64,000 nt of DNA from Azolla caroliniana (Eukaryota > Plantae > Polypodiophyta), in NCBI GenBank assembly GCA_043228905.1, contig JBHGNT010000016.1, positions 6,076,001 through 6,140,000 on the forward strand, written 5' to 3'. Below, in pieces: positions 10,618-44,458 of the stretch (its first letter is position 1; every line of letters begins with the position of its first letter). A program made the position numbers and the translations under genes. The notes beneath the pieces were generated by a model. It was given only the letters and a program-made list of their open reading frames with translations. It did no database searches and was not told where the DNA came from.

Positions 10618-12296
10618 TAATGGGTCATATTATCGTCTTCGAAGGTCTAATAGGTCATATTTGACCTCCGAAGACGATAATATAATTTCTCTCTCTCTCT
10701 CGTAAATAATGGCTTTCATTACGAAACAAAATGCACCACCATGACTAACTTACTACAAAGTATAGAACCCTTCTATCTAGGGATCTAAAGAATACTACGA
10801 CACCAAACTCAATGCCACCCTACACGCCATTCAAATGGCGAGTATGATGATATGTAACCTTGTAGAGTTCTCTCTCTTCCTAGTTGAGATTTCGTGACTT
10901 CTCTAGCACTGTCAATTGCCACAAAATAAGTCCTTTTAATTTTAGAACATATTTTCTCACCCCAACTTACGAATAAAAAATGAAGGCATTCCGCATATTC
11001 CAATTGAACCATAGCCCCCAATACCTCAAGAACTTAAAAATAATTTGAAAATGAGGCAACGGTTCATTGTTCTCCATATGTGCAAAAACCCAACTAAAGG
11101 AAGATAGACTTACTCCTGTTAGAGACATCCACACTAAACTGATACACCTCCAAACCATCCTTGCCATCAGGCATGAAATAAATCGATGCCTACTATGTTC
11201 CAATTCCACTTAACAAAAGAAACACAATCCTTTAGTAATGTTTCTTTTTTTTAATGCACCCCCTAATGGTAAAGCTCCAACCATAACTCTCCAAATAAAA
11301 ATACCTTGGCTTGTAGCATCAATCGAGAACACCAACCTGCCTTGTTCACATGAAACCACCCAGTAATGGGCTTATGAAAACCCCATATCTTTATAACCCT
11401 TTCTTCCAACCACTTATGTTTGTCAATCAACTTGTGATAAGCAACATTCGTTGAGATCATAGTCAATCTCTTATTTCCAACAAACCTCCAATCAAGGTAT
11501 TGAGATCACCCATCTAAATCAAGATTTGGCTCATGCGAAGATAGTATTTGTTGCAACTTATCCCAAACAACGTTATAACTTTTTGGAATACGAAATGTTG
11601 ATCTTATGTTCGAAAAGCCATTAATCTTCTTTGTAAACCAACATAACATCCTTAACTATTACCAAACCCAATCTAGCCATCTGATTAATTTGAAGGTTAA
11701 GAATTTGTTTACCTTCCCATCTCAACAACCTTGATGTTGCCAAAACCTCTGTTCGTAATGAATTGGCACATCCCCTTTCTTGTGGGGGATGCCATTCCAC
11801 AAAATCCAACATACTTTGCCAATATGTCAACAAATGATTAACTATCATAAACCCTGTACATTTGACATCCATGTTAGAATTAATTACATTCCACCAATTC
11901 GCTTCAACCTTCATGTTTCCAAGATTTATTCCGTTATTCTCTATAAAGTATGCTACCATTTCTGTCCAAGGTTGTACACCTTCAAACATTAATTGAATGA
12001 AAGTAAATTGACGAGCCACCATATGCTCATATAGATTCAATATTGATGCCCCACCAAGACGTTTCAGAGTACAAACATGATTCCATGCCAACCATGACAA
12101 GGCACTTTTCCCTTTTCTTTCCATAACAACATTTGCTTTGAGCATGACAACATTTAAAGAGCTTTCTTTGACCATGGGATCAAAGGAAGATAATAAGATA
12201 CCATAATCGATTGGACCACCTTAAGTCGTACATGAAAAGGCCAAAAACTAAGACCTCCAATACATAAACTTATCCTCCAACCTTTTGGATACCCAT

Positions 12297-12751
12297 TGTT
12301 AGGAATAATACTAAAATAGAGAGAGAATTAGTACTAAAGAAGGGAAGTACTATTAGTACTAAGAGGACGGGACTGCATAAGACTCCCAAGAGAGAGAAAA
12401 GAGAAGAGGAGAGAGAAAGAGAGAAAGAGAGATACTGAGGACGAGAGAGAGAGATGATGATAACAGATGATATATTATAGGAAGAGTAAGTACAAGATGG
12501 CTATGAGGCTTAAGACTGGCGTTGAACCAATTTGGTTCAACATAATACCTAGTGCCTTTTTTTTATAATGTTCTCAGGAGTAATCGTGAAGCTTCTAGAA
12601 TGTTCCAGAGAAATATGGAATATACATTAATCTCCTATAATAAAACTTAAATGAAAATAATATCTTACGTATTACAATAGATGGTATAATGGTCAACAGC
12701 TCGACCCATATAACATAAGGTCATGGTTTCGAATCTTGCCATATCATGACA
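12297..12751 (-). repeat. 3' LTR (455 bp) of the minus-strand Gypsy element
   Basis: On the minus strand it starts TGTCATGAT right after the PPT and ends CCTAACA where LINE sequence resumes. TATAAAA starts at 12567 (minus). Confidence 0.85.
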
Positions 12752-15881: not shown

Positions 15882-18800
15882 GATAATAAGATACCATAAT
15901 CGATTGGACCACCTTAAGCCATACATGAGAAGGCCAAATTTGAGACCTCCAATACATAAACTTATCCTCCAACCTTTTGGATACCCACTCAATAAGTTTG
16001 ACATGAGAAACTTCCACTCCAATTGGATATCTAAGGTGATGACAAATCATACCACGATGTACTATCCTTCCTAACCACCCCAACCCTAACACGTCTTGTT
16101 ATGTACATCAAACCCTAAACCCTATATTAATTCTCAATCCTCAAGCATTTGAAAACAATTCCCACACATCTCTTGTATTACAAATATTTTCCCGATTAGG
16201 TGCCAAGAACATAATATGGTCATCTACGAGAGCTTGAACAATACATGGCTTCCCTGATGGCAACCTTAGTCCAAACAATTCTTCCTCCATAGCCATATTG
16301 TGTAACTTAACACGAATAGGATGTGTCACAATAGTGAATAGTAAAGGACTTACCAGGAATCCTTGTCTAATTGACTTCCGAATAGAAATCAGTTGTGTTA
16401 CTCCATTAAACATCACATGTGAAACCTAACCCTCCCCTAATGTGTATATCAACTTAGACATACGATCACCAAAACCCATATAAGACATCAATTGATTTAT
16501 AAATGACCAATCCACATTATCATAGGCTTTCTCGATATCCATTTGTAGCAACACTATTCCTTGTTTAGACTCCTTTGCATAGTCAGTTGTCATTTGAACA
16601 TTTAAAATATTATGTAAAATGTCTCTTTTTGCTAAAAACCCATATTGAGCATTATGAATAATAGAAGGTAAAATCTTATGCAACCTATTGGCCATCACTT
16701 TTGCAAAAATATTGTACATTCCCCCCATCAATGAAATAGGCCTCCATTGAGCAAAGGAAGATGGAGAAGGCACCTTCGGCAAAAGCTTGATCAAACCAAT
16801 CTTCCAAGAATGAGGCAATTCCCCTGATGTCCACAACTTTTGAAATAAAACCGTAAAAGGCCCCTTTAACTTAATCACATATTTCTTAAAGAGTTCATGT
16901 GTTAATGCATCCCACCCATGACTCTTATCATTAGCAAGATGTGACATGACATGTTCCACTTCATCCTCTTAAATATTAGCATCTAATGATTATGCCACAT
17001 CATGTGATACATGATTTTTCACTCCATTAAAAAATACATCTCTATCCTTTTTAACATTATCATCGATACACATTTGGTACATCCAACAATTGTGTATAAT
17101 ATTCTATGCATTTCTTCACAATTTCTTAAGGATCAGAACACATGATACCATTTTCCTCTAACCTTACCACATTATGTCGTGCATGTGATTCATGAAGGTC
17201 ATGAAAAACTTATGTGATTGACAATTAGCATCATCCACTTCTTGTCTTAGACTATGTAGTCTAGCATGTTCATAATTTTTTGTCGTTAGGTCATGCATCA
17301 CAAAAATTAATACCTCTTGATATCCCATCAACTCTACATCTGTTGGCCAATAAGTTAACAATGAGTTGCATTTATCAAGCAAATTAGCTAGGAGACTTAA
17401 TTTCTTTCTCCTTTTAAAAGCACGGTGAATTCCATAATATCTAGTTAACCTCTGAACATTTGAAACAAATACTCCCCACGCTTCACACCCATCAAATTGA
17501 ACACGATGGGCAAATGCATCAATCAATTGACACATATAGGCATGGAAGACCTCATGATCCAAAAATGATGAATTAAAAATCAACTGTGGTTTTCCTAAAA
17601 ACTCATGAAAAACTCTAAGTGAGTGGGGATTGAACTCAAAAAATAATGGGAAATGATCTAATATAATTGACCCATAAGACACTGAAATATCCAAAATCTA
17701 TTGTAAAAAACCTTCGGTATGCATTACATACATTCGATCCAACCTACTCCAAGTATCCTTATATTGAGCCGATTGAAAGGTATAACCAAGTTCATCTCCC
17801 TTGATCCATTTCCATACATCTCTTAACATGACTTCAGTCTCAAAATCTCCCCATTCTTGAGCCTCTGGTCCACCCATAATAGAGTGGATAGATGTTGATT
17901 GATCTGTCTCACAACAAACATTAAAATCTCCCATCAATAAACCTGGTCTACCATTATCAAGCATTGAGTTTAGAGATCTTCATAACAACTTTCGTTCTTG
18001 TGAAACATTTGATGCATACACACCAACTAACCAAAGAGCTTGCCCTTCATAACATATCTCTACCACAATAAATCTTCCAAATTCATCTAAAACAATTACT
18101 TTTTGGTGAAATTTATCTCTTATAAACATGACAATCCTAGAATAATCCCCATGAACCTTGCCAACATAACATAATGTATAACCCTTAAAATAACTAATTA
18201 AACCAGCATTACGATGATCTTTATGCTCTACTGCACATAAAACATCCCATTGCTCACTTAACACAATCCTCCAAACCTCATGCATTCTAAATATAGAACA
18301 CAATCCCCTCACATTCCATGCGGTGATCTTTATACTTTAGTTTTTCCTTTTATTCAAGAAATCTCCTTCTCCTTCATTGCTAATGTTTCTGCCATATCCT
18401 AAAATAAATCCCCTAAGATTGCATATGAATTATTATGGGGATGCAAAACTGCAGACCCCGATGGCTCCTCGTGTGAACGAGGCACCGATTTCTGTTTATT
18501 CCAAGGAACATACAAATTACCTTTATTATCGAAAGATCATTTCTTTGGATAGTCCTCTTGATGAGCCCATGGTTTATTCTGCATGGGATTTGTTGGTGTG
18601 ACCTTCTCCATAGATACATTATGCCCAACATTTTTATTAGACTTTTTCATCTTTCCAAAAATTATTGACCATTGTCCTTCATCCTCTACAGTCTTTCCAT
18701 CCTTCTCATTCACAATTTGTGGTTCCTTTGTTTGCTCTGAAATTGTCAAAGCTTGAATCTGATCATGAGTTGTAGGCTCTTCATGTACCACTTCCACTAC

Positions 18801-19614
18801 ATTTTTTCTTTTTTGAGGACACTTAGCCATAAAATGCCCAATACACCACAATGGAAACAATATCCTACAAATGTACCCCATTTAAACCGAAAATAGATAA
18901 GCGGCATACCAGAGCATGCGATCTGTAAACAACGTGGCCTCTTTATAGCAATATTCCAAAGAATACACATCCGATATCGATTTTGAGCATTAGCACTAGG
19001 AGGCACCAAGATCTTTCCCAACTTTTCCATCGTTGACCGTAATATTGGCCAAACCACCGAATATGTGCACTCTACCTCAACCCATACGGGACACTCTTGC
19101 TTTAATATATCTTGGTATTCCACTAGTGGCCTCCATGGAACAATATGAACCAAACTTTTCTCATAAAAAACTGGCAATTTATTGAGTAATTTCTCTTTAT
19201 ACTCTTGTGATACCAAAACAAACTCATAAAATCCATGAGGACCGGCATAAACATCCTAAACACAATCAACTTGTAAAATCCCACGTAACCATTGTCTGAC
19301 CCTCCAAAGGAAAGGTATCTTCCCCATGAAAAACAATATGACCCCTTTATCACAAAAATTAGCAAATGAACCCAAAAACTCCTTATTGTCTATTTCTACC
19401 TTAGCCACTTCATCGTCAACAAACTCCTCAACAACTTTCACATTCTCCTTTATACAATCCTCCATTCATATATTTGCCATGCATCTTAAATGTTCCCAAG
19501 GACTATCATCTTGTCGCATTGCATCAACATAAGACATGTCATTACTATTATCTCCAATACATCATTTTCTTTTACCATCCCCTCTTGGACTTGATACTGA
19601 CTCAACCATGTATG

Positions 19615-20072
19615 TGTCATGATAACACTCACATCATGCATCAAAAGGATTATGACACTCACATTATGACTCAAAAGGATTTGAACCCACGACCTTGTTG
19701 TACACATGTCAAATCCTTAACCATTGTATTAATATTCTTATATGTATAATCTCTAGAATATGAAATCTAATATCATAGGAATATTCTATATTACTCTACA
19801 TTCTAGAATGACCTAGAATATTCTAGAGTGTTCTATACCACTAGAACCTTCTAGAATACTCTAGAGATCTTCTAGATTACTCTACATTCTAGGATAACCT
19901 AGAATATTCTAGAGTGTTCTCTATTACTTATAAATAAGGATCTACCACCCATCCCAAACCTAAATTGGTTCAACGCCATTTTGTAGCCTACTCTTTGTAA
20001 TCCATTTTACGCTTCAATATAATAATTCTCTTTCTATCTCTTTTTCTCTCTTTTTCTCTCTCAGTCTTGACA
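19615..20072 (+). repeat. 5' LTR (458 bp)
   Basis: TGTCAT...TTGACA, with TATAAATA at 19929 and multiple TCTAGA repeats. It matches the 3' LTR apart from roughly 9 substitutions and a 20-bp indel (counted by eye). Confidence 0.95.
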
Positions 20073-20159
20073 GTTTGAATCAATTTTTTCCTTTCATCTC
20101 TTCGTCTTCCACAAATTCTAACAAGTTCTCTTCTTCCTTCTCCTCTCCTCTCGTAAGCT

Positions 20160-21284
20160 ATGGAGTCCGTGAGCAAACAAGAATACATGCATGTTCTTTT
20201 TGAGCTCGACATGCTCACGAATAAATTTGTGGCATTAGAGCATGAGAATCAAAGGCTACTTGGAGATCTACAACACGTGAGCGCCGAAAAAGCTCAACAA
20301 TATGAAGAGTTATCACAACGGGTTCATCAACTCGAGGCGACTATATTGTCATTACGTGAGCAAGCGTCGGGGGCTCAGAACTCCCCTAGAGAGCCAAAGA
20401 TCAACCTCCCTGCCAAGTTTGATGGTACGAGGTCTTTATTTCGAGGCTTTTTGAATCAAGTTCGTCTAGTTATTCAGCTACATCCCAATCGGTATCCAAC
20501 TGATGTTGCTCGTGTGGGATTAGTGGGAACTTTGCTATGCGGTACGATGTTAGCATGGTTCGCACCACTTCTCGAGAAGAAATCACCATTGCTGGAGGAT
20601 TTCGAGGCATTTGTTAAAGAGTTTCAAGCTAGTTTCGGAGACACCGACAACACTAGGACAACGATAAACAAGATTCGAAGGCTCCGACAAGGAGATCGTC
20701 CCGCGTCGTCTTATGCAGTTGATTTCCGTCTCTTGGCATGCGATATCCCTTGGGATGAGGCAGCTTTAATGGATCAATTCCGTCAAAGTTTGAGAAATGA
20801 TGTCAAAGATCTTCTTCTTACTTTCCCTGAAGATCCGCAGTCACTTACAGAAGCCATTAGTCAAGTTGTGCGATGTGATAATCGCCTATTTGAGCGACGT
20901 TCTGAGCGCCAACAAATGTTACGCCGCCAACCTGAGCAGACTTACGCTTCTGTAGTCGCAACGCCTCCACAAGTTTCTAGACCCATTACAAGGGATGGCC
21001 CAACTCCGATGAAAATAGAGTCAACACAACGTCATGGGCCGTTATTAGATGCTGAGAAGCAACGACGTCGAGCGCATCGCCTTTGCCTGTATTGTAGCGG
21101 TCCAGGACATATAGCTGTAAATTGTCCACATAAACCTAGGCGTCAAGTATACCAAGTAAGTGCCCATGAAAACCCTACATCGAGTTCTATTGTTACTTCT
21201 AATAACATAAATAAGCCTCATAGTCCATGCCGTGAGAATAGATTCAATGTCTTGAGTTAATTAGAGGATGTGTTAAACGAGTAA
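20160..21284 (+). pseudogene. Gag (sushi/PEG10-like capsid plus zinc knuckle); TAA at 21258-21260 is probably premature, with the natural stop likely at 21282-21284
   Basis: PKINLPAKFDG, LRQGDRPASSYA, and the knuckle CLYCSGPGHIAVNC. Confidence 0.88.
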
Positions 21285-24200
21285 GTCCGGCCAAAATAGG
21301 AGCCATTTGACTGGACCATCCTAGCCATGTAGAGTTAGTTCCTAGTCGTGGTTCCATTTCATCAAATCAAGTGAGTCGAGTTTTTTCAGCACAAGTCGAG
21401 CTTACCACATCTGCATGTCATCGAGTCCTAGCCTCTGCCCTTCTAGATTCTGGAGCCAACTCTTGTTTCATGGATCGTGAATTTGCCTTGTCACAAAACA
21501 TCCTCTTGAATAAGCTTCCCAGCCTAGTAGTCGTAGGAGTCATTGATGGATGTCCCATAGCATCAGGAGATATAGTCGAGGAGTCTGAGCCAATTAGGAT
21601 AGTTCTTGGCAATTTGGCAAGCATAATCTCTTTCAACATTATTCGTAGTTCGGAACACCCAATAGTTCTAGGTCTCCCCTGGTTTGAACTCCATAACCCG
21701 AAGATTGATTGGATGAAAAGAACAATTGAGGAGACCCGGGAAAAAAGCACAAACCCTGCATCCCTCTCTCCTACATGTGATAATAGATCCCCTGAGTTAT
21801 CGCCCATCTCTTTACGATAGTTGCGGGAGGAAGGGGGGAACGAGGTCATGTTTGTCTTCGCAATAATAGCAACTCCATCATCCACTTCACATGAGGCGGA
21901 TATTAAACTACCAGAGAAATACAAGGAGTTTTCAGATGTCTTTGATAAGGTGAAGGCCAATACATTGCCGGAGCATCGGCCATACGATTGCCCTATTGAC
22001 TTACAACCAGGGAAAGAACCTCCATGGGGCCCAATTTATAATCTCTCCCCTGTAGAGCTAGAAACTTTGCGGGAATATATTGATGAGAATCTGGCAAACG
22101 GATTCATTCGGCATTCTAGATCCCCTGTTGGTGCACCTATCTTCTTCGTTAAGAAGAAGAATGGGACTCTTCGGTTGGTCGTGGATTATCGAGGGCTAAA
22201 CAAAGTGACTATCCGGAATAGATATGCTCTACCATTAATCCCGAATCTTTTGGAACGTCTCAGTGGTGCAAAATATTTCACGAAGTTGGACCTTCGCGGA
22301 GCATATAATCTAGTTTGGATTCGCCCAGGGGATGAATGGAAGACAGCTTTCCGCACTCGCTATGGACATTTTGAGTATACAGTGATGCCATTCGGTCTCA
22401 CGAATGCACCTGTTGTTTTCCAACATATGGCGAACAATATTTTTCGAGATTTTCTTGATATCTTCACTATAGTTTACCTAGATGATATTTTAATCTACTC
22501 AAAGACCCAAGAGGAGCATGATGAACATGTTCGTCAGGTATTGCGTTGACTCCGAGAATATGGTCTCTACGCAAAATTAGAAAAGTGTAGTTTCGGCCAG
22601 AATCAAGTGTAATTTTTGGGGTATGTTGTATCGTCAAATGGTATTGCTAGGGACCCCATGAAGGTACAAGCAATTTTAGAGTGGCAAACGCCCCTTTCGG
22701 TGCGTGATGTGCAATGTTTTCTCGGGTTTGCAAATTTTTATCGAAAATTTATTAAAGATTATTCCAAGGTTGTGCTTCCGCTTACTCAGCTCACACATAA
22801 AGATCGACCATTTATATGGAGTTCAGATGCAGCCGAGGCATTCGAAAGCTTAAAACGAGCATTTACAATGGCACCTATCTTAGCACATGTCGACCCAACA
22901 AAACGCTTCATCCTCGAAGCCGATGCATCTGATTTTGCACTAGGGAGTGTCCTCTCGCAGACTGGAGATGATGGACAACTACACCCTGTTGCCTTTCATT
23001 CACGAAAGTTTGAAGCTGCAGAGATCAACTACGAGATCTATGATAAAGAGCTTATTGCAATCGTGGATTCATTTCAACAATGGCGACATTTCCTAGAAGG
23101 TTCTTCTCAGCAGATCATTGTCTACAGTGATCATAAGAACTTGACTTATTTCCAAAATGCTCGAGTCTTGAGTCGGCGACAAGCCCAGTGGGCGCAATTT
23201 TTGACTCACTTCGATTTTATCATCATATATCGCCCTGGGATGCACCAAGGCAAAGCATATGCTCTTTCTCGGCGCTCTTATATGGAACTTCGTCCAGGGG
23301 AACCTGCATTTAAGCATAAAAAACAAATCCTTTTGGGTCCCAATCGATTACGATTAATGGTAATTAACGCCATAACAACTCTTGAAAATTCCACTCTTCT
23401 TGATTCCTTTCGAGATCATATGGCCACTGATGATTTCGCCAAGGATGTTTTGGATCATATCGTCCCGGATCGTGCTTCTTGCTCACGGTCGAAAAATCCT
23501 CGTAATGACTATTGTCAGTTCTATTGGCATGGTGGTTTTCTATTTCGACAAAATTTATTGTATGTTCCTGATGGTCCCCCACGGCTACAAGTTTTGCAAC
23601 ATTGCCATGACTCACCAATGGCTGGTCATTTTGGAGTTCACAAGACTCTAGAATTAATTTCTCGACGCTATTGGTGGCCTCGCCTTCGACATTTTGTTGA
23701 GGAGTATGTTCAGAGTTGTGATATATGTTGTCGATCAAAGAATCCTCGTCACCGACCCTATGGCTTACTACAACCACTTCCCATTCCGGAAACTCCTTGG
23801 AAGTCTATATCCTTGGACTTCATTACTGATCTCCCTGTTTCAAAAGGTTTTGATGCAATTCTCACAGTGGTTGATCGATTTACCAAAATGGCACATTTCT
23901 TGCCATGTACAAAGTCGATTACTAGTCAAGAGGCGACTGATCTCGTTATGTGGGAGGTATTTAAGCATCATGGTTTGCCGGATGATATTATTAGTGATCG
24001 TGGTCCACAATTCATCTCAAAGTTTTGGAAGCACCTGTTCAAACTTCTCCATATTTCAGTTAATCTTTCTTCGGGCCATCATCCTAAAACAACTGGCCAA
24101 ACAAAGCGTACCAACCAGACATTGGAACAATATCTTCGTTGTTTCATCAACTATCAACAAGATGATTGGGTTGCTTTTTTGCACTGGCGGAATTCGCTTA

Positions 24201-24913
24201 CAACAACTCAGCCCATTCTTCTACAGGATATTCCCCATTTTTCGCAAATACGGGTTGTCATCCTCGGTGGACGATGAATGCGCATCCGGAAGTTCCTACC
24301 AACCCTGCTGCCGAGGATCGTCTTAGTCACCTCCAAAAAATTCAAGCTAACATTCTCCACAATTTGCACGATGCTCAATTTACACATAAGAGGCTTGCCG
24401 ATCGTCATCGTCTAGACTCCTCAAAAAAGTTCCGCATTGGGGATCATGTATGGCTTCTCCAACACAACATCAAGACCACTCGACCTTGCAGTAAATTGGA
24501 TTACCAACGTTTTGGCCCTTACATGATCACTGGTAAGATAAGTGATGTTGCATTTCGTCTTGACCTCCCTCCGCACATGCATCTTCATCCGGTGTTTCAT
24601 GTATCCCTTTTGGAACCTTATACTACAAGTTCAATTCCAGGCCGACTTACGACACCCCCACCACCTATCGAGTTCTTGGACGGGCCTGAATTTGAAGTTG
24701 CTGCCGTTCTTGATTCTAAAATCGTGCGCAACATACTTAGTCGATTGGCTAGGTTATACCCCCAATGATCGAACTTGGGAACCTGCCGCAAATCTTTCCA
24801 ATGCTGCAGAACTCGTCAATGCATTTCATCGCCAATATCTTTGTAAACCAGGTCCTAATACAAAACCTACGACACGTGAGACGTGTCGTCGAAGAAGGGG
24901 GATAGTGTCATGA
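21278..24913 (+). pseudogene. Pol (protease, RT, RNase H, integrase, chromodomain) in the -1 frame relative to gag; broken by stops and frameshifts
   Basis: LLDSGA protease, YLDD, EADASD, integrase core and GPY motif, and chromodomain FEVAAVLDS..YLVDWLGY. Stops at 21308, 21818, 22547 and ~22610. Frameshifts at ~24185 and ~24730. Confidence 0.92.
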
Positions 24914-25343
24914 TAACACTCACATCATGCATCAAAAGGATCATGATACTCACATTATGTCTCGAAAGGATTTGAACCCACGACCTTGTTGTACACATGT
25001 CAAATCCTTAACCATTGTATTAATATTCTTATATGTATAGTCTCTAGAATATGAAATCTAATATCATAGGAATATTCTATATTACTGTACATTCTAGATT
25101 GTTCTATACCACTAGAACCTTCTAGAATACTCTAGAGATCTTCTAGATTACTCTACATTCTAGGATAACCTAGAATATTCTAGAGTGTTCTCTATTACTT
25201 ATAAATAAGGATCTACCACCCATCCCAAACCTAAATTGGTTCAACTCCATTTTGTAGCCTACTCTTTGTAATCCATTTTACGCTTCAATATAATAATTCT
25301 CTTTCTATCTCTTTTTCTCTCTTTTTCTCTCTCAGTCTTGATA
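24906..25343 (+). repeat. 3' LTR (438 bp)
   Basis: Direct repeat of 19615-20072. It ends TTGATA (C-to-T change in the terminal CA motif region) and is followed by the TSD. Confidence 0.95.
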
Positions 25344-26464
25344 GTATGCATCCTTTGAAGAATTTGGAGACTCATCCATATTCATGAAAACACTACCATC
25401 CATATGACAAGAAATAGGAGAGAGCTCACTTACAAGTAATTGTGTTGGAGAAGGAATCAAAGCAAGATATCATGAGATGCATGCAACCGAATGGATTTTT
25501 TACTCGTAACGCTCTACCAAGACCACAAATGATACGTGCAAGTAATCTTTAGAAACCTCTATGCGCAGGCTTTGAAACGAGCTAAAGAACAAAGGAAATG
25601 GACACCGTAGCAAGAATATACATCAAAATTAGTGTTTGTCATTCTCCAACATCTCCCAACTTTGCATTTCTCCGCTCTCTCTCTCTCTCTCTCAAGCTCC
25701 CAAAGTTTGTCTTGTTTCGTTAGGAAGGCTCTCTTGGCACATAACACGACCGAATTGCTCATCCGCTTCCTCTACCAGCCTGCCAACAAAGCGATAGTAT
25801 TTTGGATTTTTTGTGAAAATGAGGAATATCTCTACAACATTCCCGTTTTGTATCGACGTAGACACGATGTCACTTTCAAGTGTACATGTGGATATACTCA
25901 TGCATGTGTAGATGTATGTAATTTCATGCTAATTTAGCATTCAATGACTGGTCCTTAGAAATGTGGCATTGAGCTTGGATACATGAAATCACAAGAATAA
26001 ACAAAAAAAAAACAAAGAATGCTCACTTTAGCACCATTACTCCAACCAATGCAACAAATTAATTGCTCAAATAGGAACATGGTGTGAATGGACAATTTAT
26101 TATTAGGGAGTAAAACAAGGCTTCGTTGATCATCAAACTTGTAGAATTGTCAACATTCGACAACTAAATTCAAGCTTGACCTAATGATAAAAGCTCTTGA
26201 TTACTTGAGAAAAACAATGGTACAATTATTCATTTGATAAAAAAGGAGTAAAAACAAACGATAATGCAAAGGAGGTGCATAGATCTAATTACAAAACTAG
26301 AATGGAATCTAATAGTGTACACCATGTTCATTTAAAATTTATGCATGATCTTCCCACACCCACACAAAGGATATCCATGTGTCTCTTATAAATAAAGGAT
26401 AGAGTAGTTATGTATTATTCTATCACATTTTCTCATCTAATCAAGCTAACCTCCAAGAAGAAAT

Positions 26465-32231: not shown

Positions 32232-32462
32232 AAGATTTTTGCAATGTTCAATTAATAGAAAGAAATGCTTGAACATGGAGAGACACTCACTACTAGTCTG
32301 TATTTCAGACCGATTTGGGTGGGATTCGATCCCAAGACCCATTTATTTGCTCCCCTGTTCCTGTTCCTGCTTCTCCTGCTTCTGCTCCTGCTTCTCCTGC
32401 ATCTTCTGCAGGCTTGATTTAGGGTTTCCTTCCTCTCCATCCTCTTGCTTCCCTGCTTTCGA

Positions 32463-35400
32463 ATGGCTTCCCCCGCTCCGTGCCCCCCTGATGAGGAGAC
32501 CATGTCCAGTGCCCTCGCCTCCATCTCCAGCAGACGGGAGAAAGCCTCCAAAGCCCTCTCTGCCCTTGAAGGCCACAGGAACCTCATCTCCTCTTGCATC
32601 CACAAGTGGCAGGAGCTGGAACGAAGCTTCGGCGTCGCAGAACGGTCTCTGCAGCAGAAATTCAAAGAGCTCTCCGAACGGGAGAAGGAATTCGATGCCA
32701 AGATGGAAGAGATGAGAGGAGGTCTGGAGAAGAGAGAGGGCTCGATACAGAACAGAGAGGAGGCATCGTTGGCCCGTGTGAAAGAGCAGAAGGACTCAGC
32801 GATTGCTGCGATCCTCGAAGAGAGGAAAAAAGTCGAGGAGCAAAGGTTGCGGAAGGGTGATGGAGTGGAAGAGGAGGTTAAGTATACAGAGAAGATTAAA
32901 GATTCATATGAGAAGAATGTATCAGAAGAGAATGTGTCAGAGAAGAAGGCATTAGATAATGATGTGACAGAGAAGAATGTATCAGAGAAGAAAGAAAAGG
33001 AAAAAGAAATGGAAACGGAAAAGGAAAAGGAAAAAAATAAAGCATCAGGATCCTTCAAGAATGATAAAGAAATGCAACAAAAGGCTGTACAGAAGAAGCC
33101 TTGCGGAAATTTAGAAGCGCAGCAAAAGGATGAGAATCAAAACAAGAAAACAAAACCTGAGAAAGAAACAGGAATTTATGAAATGGATATGAATAAAAAG
33201 AAGAGGAAAGATTCACAACATGGCGAGGATGCAGCAATTGCAAAGCGTATCAAAGAAGTTTCTATACCGAAGAGGAATAATCGGAGCTCTGATGGTGCAA
33301 TAAGCCTCGAAGAAGCCATAAGCCAAGCTAAAGGAGCTTCGGATGGTCAAGTTCTGTCTCAAATGAAGTTTCTTATAGAGAAAAGTGATGGAAAAGGTCT
33401 TCGAGAACTCATTTCTCAACACATCAAAGAGATACCGGAGAGAGGAACGGAATTGCGCTCTGCTCTTCAGGCTTGTAATGATCCTTGCCGTATCATCTTA
33501 AAGGCTTTTGATGTCTATGAAGATGTGAAGAGAGCCACTTTCATCAACAAAAATTGCCAAGCGTGTATACTTCTTTTGGAGAATCTTTCAGAAGTTATTG
33601 CCGATCCGATCCTAGGATCAGGTTACCCTGTAGTTCCTGTTGATGTTCGAGAGGATGCAAAGGTGGTAGCTAGGCATTTGAAATCGAGACTTGAGATTCA
33701 GAGAAGAGATGATTATAACCTTGAAGTTCATCTCTTTTTGCAATTTCTTGCAACATTTGGGCTTGGTACCGAGTATAGTGATAATGAATTGTTGAGCTAT
33801 GTTGTTTCCATATCTCGTCGTGGCATGGCGCCATCGTTGTGTCGAGCTCTTGGGTTAACCGAGAGGATACCAGGTCGGTGCTCCAAATGATTCATAGATT
33901 AAAAGCATCATATGGTAAATTGATTAGAGAGTTCTTAAATTTGAACCAAGGAAGTATAGGAGGATTAGTCATGACTTAGCATTAAAAAAGTTGGTATGAT
34001 ACATTGTTAGTGCTAGTACTTGCCAGTTATTTAAAACATGTTTTGAAAATGAGTGTATATTATGGTTAGTGCCTAAACAATCCATGGGTCAAGCATGAGA
34101 CATAATTGACGCTTTAAGTGTAGGATTAAAAGATTTCTTGATCTAAACTCAAGGAAGTTCTGAAGGATTAGTCCAAAATTAGAATTGACTTGAGTTTTCC
34201 AAAATGCGTTTTAAAGAGGATAAAGTACGTTGCTGTTCTGTTCAAACTATTGATTGGTTAAGCATCAAATTTCCATTGGTTGGAACAAGTAATTTTCAAA
34301 TCCTAATATGGCACACTTGTTTTTTAAATGCATTTCAAAAATGTCAGTAAAACATTGTTGGTGCACAAAATAATCCACGTATCAAGCTGTAGACATTCAA
34401 TTGCTACCTGGCTGGTGCTGAATAATTAATGGTTTAGTATACGAAAATTGATTAAAGATTCTTAGATTTAACTGAGGAAATTTTTGAGGGATTAAACCTA
34501 ACATTCATTGTTTGACTGCTTAAAATTATAGCCTCTTCGCAGTCTTGCGACATTTTTGAGATTTTGTTCAGTGCATGCCTGATAGCGACTACAATGTTAA
34601 ATACTAGCATTTGTGAAGGATGAAACAGACCAGAAATTAGGTGGAAGCTATCTAATTAGAATTTTTTCTGCTATATTACTGCTTACTAACAAACCATATT
34701 CTATACATTGAAAACATTTTTTGTTTTAGACGAACGTTTTTTCTTTTATTTTGAAGCCCTGATTACTAATCTTAAATATTCCATTTTGAATGCACAGTAT
34801 TAGTTGACAGACTTATTAAAGAAGGGAAGCAGCTAGAGGCAATTTCGTTTGCATCATCATTTGGTATAATGGACAAGATTGATCCAGGCTATCTTCTGAG
34901 AGCATACTTGGAAGATTCAGAACGAGCAGCTCAGTTATTGGTAGAGAAAGCTCGATCAAAAGCATCTGGTTTGGTGTGTACAATATAAATCAGTTTTCTG
35001 ATCAAGTTATATTTCAAGTGTCTTTTAACTCTAATGAAGATCTACATTTGGTGGCAGAACGATGCTCATGTGAAACAGGTTTCAGCCCTAAAAAGTGCCG
35101 TGAAAACCATAGAAGAGTATAACTTGGCCTCCTTCATGTCTCCAGAGAGTTTGAAGAAGCGGATCGTAGCACTGGATGAGGAAAAATCTGAGAGGAAAAG
35201 GGCATCCACGGTGTTTAAGCAAGAGAGAAAGATTACCAAGAGTGTCCAAGAAATGAGTAATGTTGTTGATATAGGCCTTGGCTCAGATCCTAATACTGTC
35301 ATTGGCTCCAAGTCTAGTAATGCTTCAAATGCTGGTGAAAGAGGCCAATATGTGCTTACTGATCTTGGTCGGCCTATGGGACGCAGTAATTATGTAGGTA

Positions 35401-35813
35401 CAGACTTGGGACCATCCTATCATTCTTCTTATGGTTTAGCTAGTCAATATGACTATGAAAGAAGACCAGAATCTATACATAGTTCGGGATATGGATACAA
35501 TGGCAGAATCCCAATATCACAATCTAATTCATATGTGAGAGAAGCAGTTGGTCCTGCATTGAGTGGATCGGATTTGCGCATATCAACTGCATCATCATAT
35601 CCGGGAATTTTGGGATCTAATGGTAACTACCCACATGGCTCCATTTTACCTCTCTCCAACTATCCACGTGGCAGTGTACCTTCATCCAACTACCCACATG
35701 ACAGTAATGTACCGCCATCTAACTACCAACATAACACCAATGTTCCCCCATCCAACTACCCACATACCAACAATGTACCCCCATCCAACTACCTTCCTTA
35801 TTATAGACGGTAG
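32463..35813 (+). CDS. FRIGIDA-like protein, ~780 aa; exons 32463-33873, 34798-34973, 35058-35813
   Basis: N-terminal coiled coil (KWQELERSF..SLQQKFKEL). The FRIGIDA domain has DGKGLRELI, ALQACNDPCRIILKAF, CILLLENL, FLQFLATFGL, LCRALGL|..LIKEGKQLEAISFASSFG..LLRAYLED and ALKSAVKTIEEYNL. The 3-exon structure is typical of the family. Confidence 0.93.
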
Positions 35814-39475: not shown

Positions 39476-41836
39476 TTAACTCGTATCGACCCATGCATTA
39501 TTGCTTGGTTTCTTCCAATGAGCATGTTTCTGCCTCACAGCTTCAAGTATTAGTGCACCCTCTTCTATTCCTGCAGCTGCATAAATATTAGACATAAGTA
39601 TGTAAGCCGCAGCGCAACTATTATCTAGTCGGATTGCTTGATCAAAAGCCAATCCTCCCAGCTTCACGTTTCCCCATTTTCTACAAGCAGCCAGTAAAGC
39701 AAGCCAAACTGGAAGATGATCACATGATGGAATTGAATTGATGAATGACATAGCTTGGTCAAAGTGCCCCCCACGTCCGAAATTAACAACCATGCATGTA
39801 TGGTGCTCCAAATTCTGTAAAACTCCATATTTTCTGCTCATATTTCTAAAATAAATTTGGGCTTCATCAAATAAGCCTGAGTGACTACATGCATTTAGAA
39901 CACACAACAAGGTGACTGCATCCGGGGAAAAACCCTCGTCTCGCATCCGCTCGAAACATTTGAATGCTTCATAAGCTTTCCCCCTCTGAGCATAGCCCGC
40001 AATAACTGCAGACCAAGAGACTATGTTTCGAGTAGGAAGTTCTTTAAGTACTTCCTCAGCTTTTGCAAGCGCTCCGCATTTTGCATACATACCCACCAAT
40101 GCGTTACCTAGCACAATATCTTTATCCAGCAAGCCCATGTGAACAATCTCATCATGAATTTCTTTGCCCTTGTCAATAGCACCTATACAGCTACAAGCCT
40201 TCAAGATGCAAGCAAAGGTGATCATGTCTGGCAAGATGCCCTCACCTTTCAATCGTTCAAAACAATTCAGTGCTTCATGACCCCGTCCCTGCTGGGCATA
40301 GCCTGCAATTAATGCAGACCAGGAGACAACATCCCGAACACACAGATGATCATGCACTCGTTGTGCTTTTGCAAGCAGACCACATTTAACATACATATCC
40401 ACTAAAGCATTGCCAACCACAGAATTGTTTTCTAAAAAACCCCTATTAATAATCTCACTATGAATTTGTTTGCCCTTGTCAATGGCTCCTATACTGCCAC
40501 ATGCTTTCAAGATGCATGTCAATGTTACCACATGTGGAGACAGGCATTCTCCTTTCATACGCTCAAAACAGTTCAATGCTTCATGACCTTGATGCAATTG
40601 GACATATCCCGCAATAAGTGCAGACCATGAGATCATATCTCGAACATGAATCTTTTCAAGCGCTTCATGAGCTTTTACAACTTCACCACATTTTGCATAC
40701 ATATCAACCAGAGCATTGCCAAGAACAATGTACCTTCCTAACAAACCCCGTCTAGCAACCTCATCATGAATTTGTGCACCCTTTTCTATAGATCCTGTGC
40801 TACTACAAGCCTTCAAAGCGTAAGTGAAAGTTACCACGTCAGGGGCAATGCCATCCTCTTTCATCTGTTCAAAACATTTTAGTGCTTCATGACCTAACCC
40901 AAGTTGGGTATATCCTCCAATTAGTGAAGACCAAGAAACAATGTCCCTAACGGGAAGCTCATTGAGCACTTGCTGTGCTTTTCCAAGCACACCGCATTTT
41001 GCATACATGTCCACTAAAGCATTACCAAGGACAACACTGTTCGACAGTAATCCCTTCCTAATAATCTCATCATGAAATTTTATACCCTTACCAATATTCC
41101 TTGTGCTGCCACATGCCTTCAAGATGCAAGTAAAAGTAATGGCATCGGGAGATAAGCCCTCACTATGCATACGCTCAAAACATTTCAGTGCTTCATGACC
41201 ATGCCCTTTTTGAGTGTACCCAGAAATTAGTGCAGACCAAGAAAATATGTCTCTGACAGGAAGATCTTCAAGAACTTGTCGTGCTTTTGCAAGCTCATTA
41301 CACTTTGCATACATATCCACCAAAGCATTACCAAGCACAATGTTTTTCTGTAGAAAGCCCCTTCGAACAATCTCACCATGTATTTGTTTCCCTTTATCAA
41401 TACATTTCATAGTTCCGCAGGCCTTCAGGACGCTAACATAAGTGATTGAATTGGGAGACACACCAACCTTTTGCATCTTCTCAAAACAGTTTAGAGCTTC
41501 ATGGCCTTGCCTACATTGGGTATATCCTGCAATTAATGCATTCCAAGATACTATACTTGGGACTGCAAGCTGGTCATGCAATATTTGAGCTTTTCCAATT
41601 GCACCACATTTAGAATACATACTGATTAAAGAGCTAGCAAGATCAGACCTCTTTTCCAACAAACCCTTTTTTAGAATGTCAGCATGCAATTGACCTCCTT
41701 TATCCAGATCTTTCCTCTTAGCACAAGCTTTGAGTAGGGCTACAAAGTCAAAAGCTTCATTTTTTACATCCATTGTCAATGCTCCCCACATTCTTTTCTT
41801 CAAACTCCTTCGTTGATAACTAATAGCTCTTCTCAT
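39476..41836 (-). CDS. PLS-class pentatricopeptide repeat protein, E subgroup without DYW (putative organellar RNA-editing specificity factor)
   Basis: The uninterrupted ORF has about six P-L-S triplets (VSWSALIAGYAQ / TFTCILKAC / GNALVDMYAKCG), then P2-L2-S2 and E motifs (VWLALLAACRKWGNV, AYILMSNIYAAAG), ending at the PG-box-like KKPSNNAWV. The first in-frame ATG is at 41836; upstream exons are possible. Confidence 0.93.
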   Translation of the reverse strand: MRRAISYQRRSLKKRMWGALTMDVKNEAFDFVALLKACAKRKDLDKGGQLHADILKKGLLEKRSDLASSLISMYSKCGAIGKAQILHDQLAVPSIVSWNALIAGYTQCRQGHEALNCFEKMQKVGVSPNSITYVSVLKACGTMKCIDKGKQIHGEIVRRGFLQKNIVLGNALVDMYAKCNELAKARQVLEDLPVRDIFSWSALISGYTQKGHGHEALKCFERMHSEGLSPDAITFTCILKACGSTRNIGKGIKFHDEIIRKGLLSNSVVLGNALVDMYAKCGVLGKAQQVLNELPVRDIVSWSSLIGGYTQLGLGHEALKCFEQMKEDGIAPDVVTFTYALKACSSTGSIEKGAQIHDEVARRGLLGRYIVLGNALVDMYAKCGEVVKAHEALEKIHVRDMISWSALIAGYVQLHQGHEALNCFERMKGECLSPHVVTLTCILKACGSIGAIDKGKQIHSEIINRGFLENNSVVGNALVDMYVKCGLLAKAQRVHDHLCVRDVVSWSALIAGYAQQGRGHEALNCFERLKGEGILPDMITFACILKACSCIGAIDKGKEIHDEIVHMGLLDKDIVLGNALVGMYAKCGALAKAEEVLKELPTRNIVSWSAVIAGYAQRGKAYEAFKCFERMRDEGFSPDAVTLLCVLNACSHSGLFDEAQIYFRNMSRKYGVLQNLEHHTCMVVNFGRGGHFDQAMSFINSIPSCDHLPVWLALLAACRKWGNVKLGGLAFDQAIRLDNSCAAAYILMSNIYAAAGIEEGALILEAVRQKHAHWKKPSNNAWVDTS

Positions 41837-44458
41837 CAACTCTTGTTGAGCCCCAGAAATTGTTGAGTAGCTCTACATCTAGATAGACCCTACAATCTCA
41901 CGATTTAGAGAGTATTCTATGCAAACAAAACACACAATCCACTCAAAAACACATTTCTTTATTACTTGCTTTGATGGGTTAAATTTTGCAATAGTCTTTT
42001 AGAAGTGTTATTACTTCTTTAGGTCTTATTGACCATTATGGTCTTTTAGAAGTGTTATCTTTCTTTCTTTCTCTCAACCAAGATATAACGAAGGGGTTAC
42101 AATAGATCAGGCAATAGCAATTTGTCATGCATGTAGGCCCCAGCCTCATGGACCACAATCTCACCACCCATGTCATCGATGGATGAAGGCCATTTATCTC
42201 CCGCCATCACAGGTCCTTCCCTCAATTCAGAGAACTTTCAATTCCAGATCGACATATGCTAGAGATCTTTCGAAGACAAAAGTTACAATATATCTGACTT
42301 GAGAACTTACATGTGCCGATAACAAGATTCTTTAGTCTCTTTTTATTTTACTTGCTTTTATGTTTACTTAGTAGCATTTATTTTGTTTTGATTTGTTGTT
42401 CGCAAAGACGAGATCCAATTTACGATGTAATCTCTTGTTTGGTCTTATATAGGTCATTTTGGCCTCTTAAAAGACGCTAATACATCATTCTTTCTTTTCT
42501 CACTCTGCCTTCACATATGCAGTTGAAACCTTTATTTGGTCTCAATGGCAAGTATGGTCTTTTAGAGAAGAGTTTCACTCTTTTGAGTTCAACCCAAGGA
42601 AGATGCCAAAAGGAACAGAAGGTTTTAGAAGGGTTTCACAATAATGGATCATATTTTGACTTTGAGACCTATCGTTGACAGTGGTGAAGAACCTAGTAGG
42701 ACTTTTGGTTGCTTAAAACCTGCACCACATACTCAAATTTGCCATAAGGGTACGGTCATTGAGGGGGATTCAAAGCAAAGGGCATAGGTTAGGGAAAGTT
42801 ACATTCCTATCGCAAAGAATCCAGTGTTCCATTGCCGGACCAAGCATATTTGAGATCCAATACCAGTTCATATGACAACTCACTTCCGATGAGAAAGTGA
42901 AGTTGGAATATTGTTCTTTAGTGGACAACTGCGTGCATCTCTTTTTGAAGGCCCTATGCATTTACTGGATTACAAAGCTAATGTGGAGTATCTGAGCAGG
43001 ATGATGCATGAATTTGGCCTACCAAGTGTGGTAGGATTTCAGGCAACCCAACAATAAAACAGAATCCAAAAGAATCGGATGATGCAGTTAGTGTCGATAA
43101 ACTTGTTGACGGGAGTTCTGATGCGTACAAGAGTCAACTACTCTCTTGCTTCATGGTCAATGAAGAGAGTGGTTATGTTAAGGTGTTAGCTGTTAGGGTT
43201 AACAGCTTAATGTATAATAGGAACCTTAGCGAGGGCACTAAGGTTAGTTCTTCCCTACAAGCCACTGAATTGCGTCTATATATGCCCACTTTGAAGCACC
43301 TGACCATAGAGCCCCCATTTTACCAATCTTCTGTTGTACTCATGCTTTGATGCTCTGATAATCATAAACACTGTCTTCTGCATAATTTCTTTGCATTCAT
43401 TAACTTAGTTACTCTCTATTTTCCAAGCAATAGGTAATATATACTTTTATTTACAATATAAACACTTCAGTTGTGCATTAATTGTGGAGTTTAGCGACGC
43501 ACCTTTGCCAATACTGCTTGTTTCAACACCAGCAATTTGATCATCTTTTGGTATAGAGGTTTTTACAATCATATTGTGTGCATTTTACAGTTTTCTAATA
43601 TGAATTTTGCATGTCTACAGGAGTAAAGTTAATGTGAGATGAAAAGAACAATCTTTCATGGGCAGCTGGTTTCAATGTCTTTTGCATGAATATTCACATG
43701 AAAAAATCACTTTTCATCCTCAAAATATGTGCAAACAAGAGTCCACTTCAAAAGCACATGTTTTTTCCACCAAAAGAAAGCATGTTCTGGCCTTATAATT
43801 CAATTATTCATTTGGTTTTTCAAACTTCATCCGCGAATATTCATTGGAGTGCAATCACTCCTCTAAAGAGAATTAGGTTCTCGTTAGTCAACATAGCCAA
43901 AGGTCTAGGTAGCAAGAAAAGCAGTTTCGATGAGAATGTATTGGTGTCATGGAAAAGAGAACATTTTCAAGGTCCGAGTTTCAAGCACATCAATTACAAT
44001 GAGCATTGAGCTGAGCGCAGTCCAGATCTTGTTGAACAACATTTTGTAATGTCTCGGTTTCATTTAGTACAAGCACACCAGTTCCAATGAGAGACTATGT
44101 GTTCTAATAGAAAACTTGTTACTTCCGATCTTTCCAAAGGACTCCATGGTTGGGAATTCAGTCGATTTACTGAAATGGAAGGAAGACACGAGCAGAATTG
44201 GCACACAACAACAGCATGAGAGAAAAAGATGTAGGAACAAACTGTGTGCCAAAATCTGGACCACTCCAAACCTAACCGAAACGTATGAGCAAAACAAGCA
44301 AACTCAAACTCTGTATCATCCGAAAATCTGAATCCCTTTAAAGAACGGAGACACATGAGGGAGAGATCCGGACGTTACCTGCGTATGCGCGAACCCTAAA
44401 GCGCGCCATAGCCAAGGCCATGGATGACCTAAGTTCTCACACGGGAGGGGTCTTCTTC

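Follow-up and report, generated by a model that had tools for sequence, protein, structure and literature searches.

Some retrotransposons with long terminal repeats (LTRs) are shown or predicted to start reverse transcription from their own RNA. In Tf1 of Schizosaccharomyces pombe the first 11 nt of the RNA pair with its primer-binding site (PBS) and are cut off by RNase H, and the leader adopts a three-duplex "pretzel" fold (PMC7175516; bioRxiv 10.1101/2022.12.06.519325; PMC11042837). As far as the accessible text of the sources goes, the mechanism is shown only in this yeast element, and self-priming in plants has so far been based on a single complementarity search. That search for complements predicted self-priming for 83% of 1500 elements of the chromovirus clade Tcn1 from mosses and club-mosses, and for 89% of 203 plant elements of the Ty1/copia lineage TAR, which belongs to another superfamily and has no chromodomain (Neumann et al. 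2019, PMC6317226). A PCR survey of 26 ferns and horsetails failed to detect Tcn1 (Novikova et al. 2010, PMC2864245), and in the accessible text the clade is reported only from mosses and club-mosses.

Here we describe element A, a retrotransposon in a window of 64,000 nucleotides (the whole stretch of DNA that was analysed), which very probably primes reverse transcription as Tf1 does, with the predicted 5' 11-12 nt of its own RNA. It resembles the Tcn1 chromoviruses, so far as the accessible descriptions go, in its aromatic-cage chromodomain, its 5-bp target-site duplication (TSD), the absence of a tRNA PBS and an LTR complement from which self-priming is predicted. At about 5.7 kb it also fits the 5.5-9.4 kb and the two frames for gag and pol that REXdb gives for the clade. 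The group of element A adds primer/PBS covariation, junction fossils, a U3 hairpin and a tRNA-like remnant, none of which is described for Tcn1 in the accessible parts of PMC6317226 and PMC2864245; lists of self-primers, or a decision on the clade, may be in Neumann et al.'s Additional files 1 and 3.

Two further systems invite comparison. As in the accessible accounts of Tf1 and Tf2 of S. pombe and of the Tf1/sushi elements, a predicted primer would pair with the PBS in the element A group and the PBS would be copied into the cDNA ends; the LTR ends fit the att motifs of Sushi (PMC3601003, in part). The group differs from Tf1 in that its primer is 11 or 12 nt long, the pretzel is only partly predicted, and we infer a cleavage that in Tf1 is shown. 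The TRIMs Helenus and Cassandra carry, like element A, a piece in the LTR that is derived from a small RNA and resembles a Pol III promoter. According to the accessible text neither is autonomous, a tRNA PBS is present in Helenus, and the role proposed for the Helenus piece is production of the template RNA (Kojima 2024, PMC10886601). In contrast, element A has a TATA box and its piece is degenerate and antisense; of the features that define Helenus and TRIMp3 it has the tRNA-like LTR sequence, but it encodes gag and pol and lacks a tRNA PBS, where those elements are non-autonomous and tRNA-primed.

Element A and its predicted primer

Element A is a complete Ty3/gypsy element of 5,729 bp (19615-25343, forward strand). 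Its LTR limits were set by alignment of the 5' LTR (19615-20072, TGTCA...TGACA, 458 bp) with the 3' LTR (24906-25343, 438 bp), which differ by 9 mismatches in 438 aligned bases, and by the TSD GTATG on the left (19610-19614) and on the right (25344-25348). The gag ORF (20160-21260, with its stop at 21260) matches Pfam Retrotrans_gag and Ty3_capsid. Pol (21311-24913) is recognized by Pfam in pieces, namely protease, RT, RNase H, integrase, SH3_Tf2-1 and chromodomain, which in this copy are interrupted by stops and frameshifts, and a polypurine tract lies at 24891-24905. The chromodomain matches Pfam Chromo; its residues F..W..Y, which span a frameshift in element A, and Y..W..Y in families E and F occupy what we take to be the positions of the aromatic cage. 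Gag and pol are separate proteins in close relatives (P0001, P0125). Short palindromic repeats centred on TCTAGA make up the U3 of family A (19750-19925 in this copy) and are found in families B, C and D too. Elsewhere in the window are a FRIGIDA-like gene in pieces (32418-35813, forward strand) and a PPR gene of 798 aa with an E motif (39476-41872, reverse strand).

A preliminary description of this DNA had proposed that the element primes itself, and all of its coordinates were correct on recheck. The sequence after the 5' LTR is, as it stated, not a TGG-starting tRNA PBS: a GT spacer that is kept across families (20073-20074) is followed by the PBS TTGAATCAATTT (20075-20086). This PBS is complementary to the predicted self-primer AAATTGGTTCAA (19962-19973, predicted RNA nucleotides 1-12) over 12 bp, with 11 Watson-Crick pairs and one G:U at 20080. 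The primer segment begins 33 nt below the TATA box (19929-19935, TATAAA from 19929), and other families keep a spacing of 32-33 nt; this spacing, together with a pyrimidine-A step, points to the beginning of the primer as the probable transcription start. The ends of contigs show no accumulation, which bears on this start in neither direction. Conservation among copies, on which the proposal depended, is high in the 30 best family A copies: 26 pair at 12 of 12 positions, three at 11 and one at 10. The G:U at 20080 is therefore a mutation of this copy, where a T stands for the C of 28 of the 30 copies; T>C at this position is seen in further contigs too. In one family A copy (L008:1501-1808) the primer region has gained 3 bases and the sequence directly after the PBS 4 bases, and the pairing of the two is inexact.

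The motif that the preliminary description reported for a second family, family B, is likewise in place, 34 nt below its own TATA box. It lies at 12533-12522 in the 3' LTR of a 5'-truncated copy (12297-12751, reverse strand; TATA at 12567), which also has a tRNA-like remnant at the start of U3 and a palindrome formed by an inverted primer copy between TATA and primer (12521-12541, reverse strand). Because the 5' LTR of this copy is lost, its PBS is absent from the window. Among 30 genome matches of family B the PBS is next to the LTR in 10, of which seven pair at 12 of 12 positions. The LTRs of families A and B do not align, yet they share the 12-mer in genome copies. The family B copy of the window sits inside a LINE and has neither 5' LTR nor gag; about 100 bp of LINE sequence is duplicated on its two sides (12189-12295 and 15893-15987, reverse strand, 93%), which far exceeds a 5-bp TSD.

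Covariation, leader folds and the tRNA-like remnant

Sixty regions were fetched around gag and chromodomain matches, which with the window makes 61. An LTR pair was present in 41 of them and an LTR end could be called in 40, by a pattern that favours a PBS starting with TTG or TGG; the called ends agree with the LTR alignments and with most TSDs. A perfect LTR complement of 11-17 nt occurs in 34 of the 38 elements of the group with called ends, and the other four have mismatches or G:U pairs. Wherever TATAA is intact, the 11-12 nt core of the duplex begins 32-33 nt below it, at a pyrimidine|A step. The duplex always ends in CAA. Random internal windows have a complement of at least 11 nt anywhere in their own LTR in 33 of 12,000 cases (0.275%), a chance figure set with no requirement for TATA spacing. 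Two elements of a second chromovirus family (L155, L162), which have a tRNA-Met-type PBS and whose RT groups with algal and seed-plant sequences, served as a control; their LTR match is only 6 nt.

Primer and PBS change together. Among the 34 perfect elements the PBS matches the LTR in all 244 pairs of its own primer type and in 0 of 878 pairs with other types; the family tree made alongside is a quick one. Metagenome contigs, mostly of one series with three from other sources, added six primer/PBS types: 78 loci were fetched, 67 have upstream sequence, and both halves are visible in 23 of these. There are thus 12 types in all, with 8 of 11 columns changed on both sides, and the covariation between the R-region 12-mer and the PBS that the preliminary description had named as a check is present across copies. 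None of the loci examined shows the normal PBS of family G or of family H. Covariation alone is no proof of function, but self-priming itself predicts that the primer is copied into the PBS.

In folded leaders the mean pair probability between primer and PBS is 0.91-0.96 in 13 of 14 and 0.72 in one. Fold prediction gives the central duplex of the pretzel in all of them and the U5-side helix in families B-F but not in A; E alone is predicted to have the leader-side helix. An inverted primer copy between TATA and primer, with a predicted folding energy of -12 to -20 kcal/mol, occurs in families B, E, F, G and the L163 type, and no such copy is present in families A, C and D. This U3 hairpin would be absent from the 5' end of the RNA and present in its 3' end, and there it would mask the primer's second copy.

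The U3 of element A also contains, on the opposite strand, a tRNA-like remnant (19672-19728, reverse strand) that consists of part of an A box (19715-19728), a variable-loop-like stretch and a B box (19677-19687). It scores 14.9 bits against a profile of host tRNAs, for which the best of 880 shuffles reached 6.3. Most LTRs of families A, B, C, D and F score 6.6-20 bits, while family E has only a B-box-like hairpin of 4.5 bits, below the best shuffle, and family G has nothing. The remnant was found solely with the host-tRNA profile, as Rfam (E up to 10) and ARAGORN detected no tRNA in the LTRs; the profile missed 7 of 44 LTRs, among which were a control, family G and a cut LTR, and a sense-strand site in one of the control LTRs scored 8.3 bits against it. 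The preliminary description had called a tRNA-like U3 module in a self-priming element an odd combination. The module is real, but it does not conflict with self-priming, because it is antisense, is not complementary end-on to the PBS and has no acceptor stem or CCA; for want of the last two it cannot be the primer. One guess is that it is a putative TFIIIC site that may act as a boundary, or else an outward Pol III promoter at the LTR edge. Nuclear tRNA genes of this genome occur in tandem arrays, of Lys/Asn with a period of about 368 bp and of Ile and Arg too (L181, L188, L189, G000:C5 near 17.99 Mb; L198-L200).

Junctions between primer and inverted U5

At two fetched loci, U3 and the primer are joined to AC and an inverted U5, which reads as the sequence of the primer fused to its own minus strand. 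A genome-wide pattern search found 197 such junctions, in all families, and its reversed control found 0. The ratio 197/2,453 is no clean error rate, because both patterns miss part of their targets: the junction pattern requires an intact TATA, and the comparison pattern does not catch normal E, F or H, nor all of C. We examined 70 of 100 listed junctions (of the 197), aligned 65 and dropped one as a repeat, which leaves 64. Relative to the primer end, the inverted piece ends at 0 to +10 in 15 cases and inside the primer in 0 (p = 6e-5). The remaining ends lie at +11 to +21 in seven, further short in 31, part-way into U3 in three and through all of U3 in eight. The pile-up just past the primer is therefore a minority, since 38 of the 64 inverted pieces stop over 10 nt before reaching it. 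Three end points were decided by eye: L296 was left out as a duplicate of L297, L226 was shifted from -4 to +7, and L306 from +7 to +14. Without these corrections the comparison is 15 against 2. Strong-stop ends at +1 are expected if the template is cut directly past the primer, and the ends of the inverted pieces likely mark where the template RNA is cut. By analogy with Tf1, the cutting enzyme is likely RNase H.

The process that these data suggest would run as follows. The predicted first 11-12 nt of the RNA would fold onto the PBS, and a cut behind ...CAA, for which RNase H is the likely enzyme, would release them to be extended. The junctions would be replication errors in which a minus strong-stop DNA, its primer still attached, anneals by 2-5 nt to a minus strand within the element. 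Its primer would be copied into a PBS that then pairs not with the true PBS but with the primer sequence in R, so that U3 is copied onto it. In a minority route plus strong-stop DNA may snap back on itself, and integrase would insert the mis-copied product in either case.

Several junction elements are instructive on their own. Four LTR-only inserts of 616-721 bp (L221, L233, L263, L278) have a U3 end on each side, with an exact TSD in three and one mismatch in one, and are likely snapped-back plus strong-stop DNA. A head-to-head family E element (L125, G000:C17:9250500-9260400) has the TSD CTCAT and an assembly gap in its centre; at its primer junction the U5 end is present a second time over 9-11 bases, as if reverse transcription had stuttered when it began. 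Within 65 kb lie three junction elements of family D (L296-L298, G000:C9:1908639, 1925831, 1973236), and the two of them that share the second junction are possibly one event that was later duplicated. Error junctions are more frequent in family D (15 in the first 100 listed) than in family B (2 in the first 100; Fisher p = 0.0015, coordinates matched by eye). Fewer copying errors in the presence of the hairpin are only a lead, because two families are compared and they differ in other ways.

The junctions might instead be inversions that arose after insertion between the 12-bp inverted repeats, or plus-strand snap-back with RT pausing at the stem base, and they would then mark no RNA cut. This explanation bears on the fossil argument only and leaves self-priming untouched; we regard it as unlikely, though it carries more weight than the others considered here. 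Any crossover within the 12-bp repeat would yield an identical first junction, the eight inverted pieces that span the whole U3 are directly explained by snap-back, and a stem could stall RT near +1. On the other hand, none of the 65 aligned junctions is a clean inversion with its reciprocal junction. The second junctions lie at scattered sites (of 56, 26 internal sense, 6 internal antisense, 5 LTR and 19 unplaced) and have short microhomology, with a mean of 2.2 nt against 0.34 by chance and at least 2 nt in 18 of the 26 scored. Moreover, TSDs around the U3-to-U3 products L263, L221 and L233 argue that these integrated already rearranged. The same holds for many junctions, as TSDs flank the junction elements: both ends were called in 37 of 62 elements (25 were not callable), with an exact TSD in 18, one mismatch in six and none in 13, of which some are due to a mis-called left end.

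Other readings concern the primer itself. The 12-mer could be the primer and come from a second packaged RNA, from the 3' R copy, or from an RNA that starts elsewhere. Sequence does not distinguish cis from trans, the start site is a prediction, and the helices that flank the Tf1-type fold are weak or absent in family A. This origin is nevertheless improbable, as in five primer types the complementarity opens with pyrimidine|A at a distance of 32-33 nt below TATA, which is where a plant Pol II start is expected, and the 3' copy of B, E, F, G and the L163 type lies in the predicted hairpin. It is more improbable still that a host tRNA or tRNA fragment primes and that the LTR match is incidental. 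The PBS of A/B with its GT is complementary to the tRNA T-loop, and types A/B, B2 and C have internal matches of 9-11 nt to the T-arm of host tRNA-Asn and tRNA-Gln. Against this, the longest match of types D, E/F and H to tRNAs of real length is 6-7 nt, there is no TGG, and no host tRNA 3' end matches the PBS among 87 distinct ARAGORN sequences of 14 anticodons, an incomplete sample that lacks the initiator tRNA as a positive control; the comparison with host tRNA 3' ends that the preliminary description had suggested thus came out in its favour. Every PBS change is mirrored in the LTR, and if the template were intact and the primer came from outside, ends would be expected at the 12-mer start, where 0 of 64 are found. 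Least credible of all is that the R motif is kept as a TFIIIC B box and its likeness to the PBS is secondary. The A/B motif with its next bases, GGTTCAACGCC, fits what we assume to be the B-box consensus, and these LTRs do contain another tRNA-like piece, but D, E/F, G and two metagenome types keep the complement with no B-box likeness, and covariation already disfavours the idea. Self-priming, as first proposed for this element, is the best reading; the covariation over 12 types supports it, and the ends of the mis-copied insertions point the same way.

Clade, host and significance

In a 57-row tree the RT of element A falls among fungal, vertebrate and other sequences and not within the green-plant clade (100% support) to which the tRNA-primed control belongs; the deeper nodes of this tree are poorly supported. 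Membership of element A in Tcn1 is likely and no firmer, because no named Tcn1 sequence was among the matches compared. The plastid contigs of the assembly have in-frame stops, seven in rpoB and two in chlB. Such stops mark U-to-C editing, which is not known from mosses. The rpoB and chlB stops therefore point to a fern rather than a moss, with a hornwort or a quillwort as less probable hosts. A homologue search with one host gene gave no match. With a host that is likely a fern, the element departs from the range of mosses and club-mosses reported for Tcn1. The accessible parts of PMC8282616 and PMC13469084 hold nothing further on ferns.

Since Neumann et al. 2019 already predict self-priming for the clade, self-priming itself is not new for plants. 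A literature search, with most subscription journals outside its coverage, found no published report of these junctions, of the U3 hairpin, of the antisense tRNA-like piece or of Tcn1 in ferns. Two lines of evidence are added here from sequence alone, namely the joint change of primer and PBS over 12 types and about 200 mis-copied insertions, some of which end at the predicted cut. More tentatively, and with somewhat less than even confidence, we suggest that self-priming has a cost. Since R is complementary to the PBS, second-strand transfer may be misdirected in roughly 2-15% of insertions, and, with no data other than the genome sequence, the 197 integrated errors may map the primer cut in vivo. 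Several families may have answered with an inverted primer copy at the U3 end that hides the 3' primer copy, and the group may extend to ferns and bring with it, at the edge of the LTR, a conserved antisense module of Pol III type.

The value of the locus lies in its likely fern host, in the covariation, and in junction fossils, through which genome sequences would reveal the cut site of self-priming and how often it errs. If this is true, a junction scan in any genome with a self-priming family could confirm the mechanism, locate the cut and give the error rate, with fungi, vertebrates and the TAR lineage of copia elements within its reach. A fern host would also add to the range of a clade whose scattered distribution serves as an argument for horizontal transfer from fungi.
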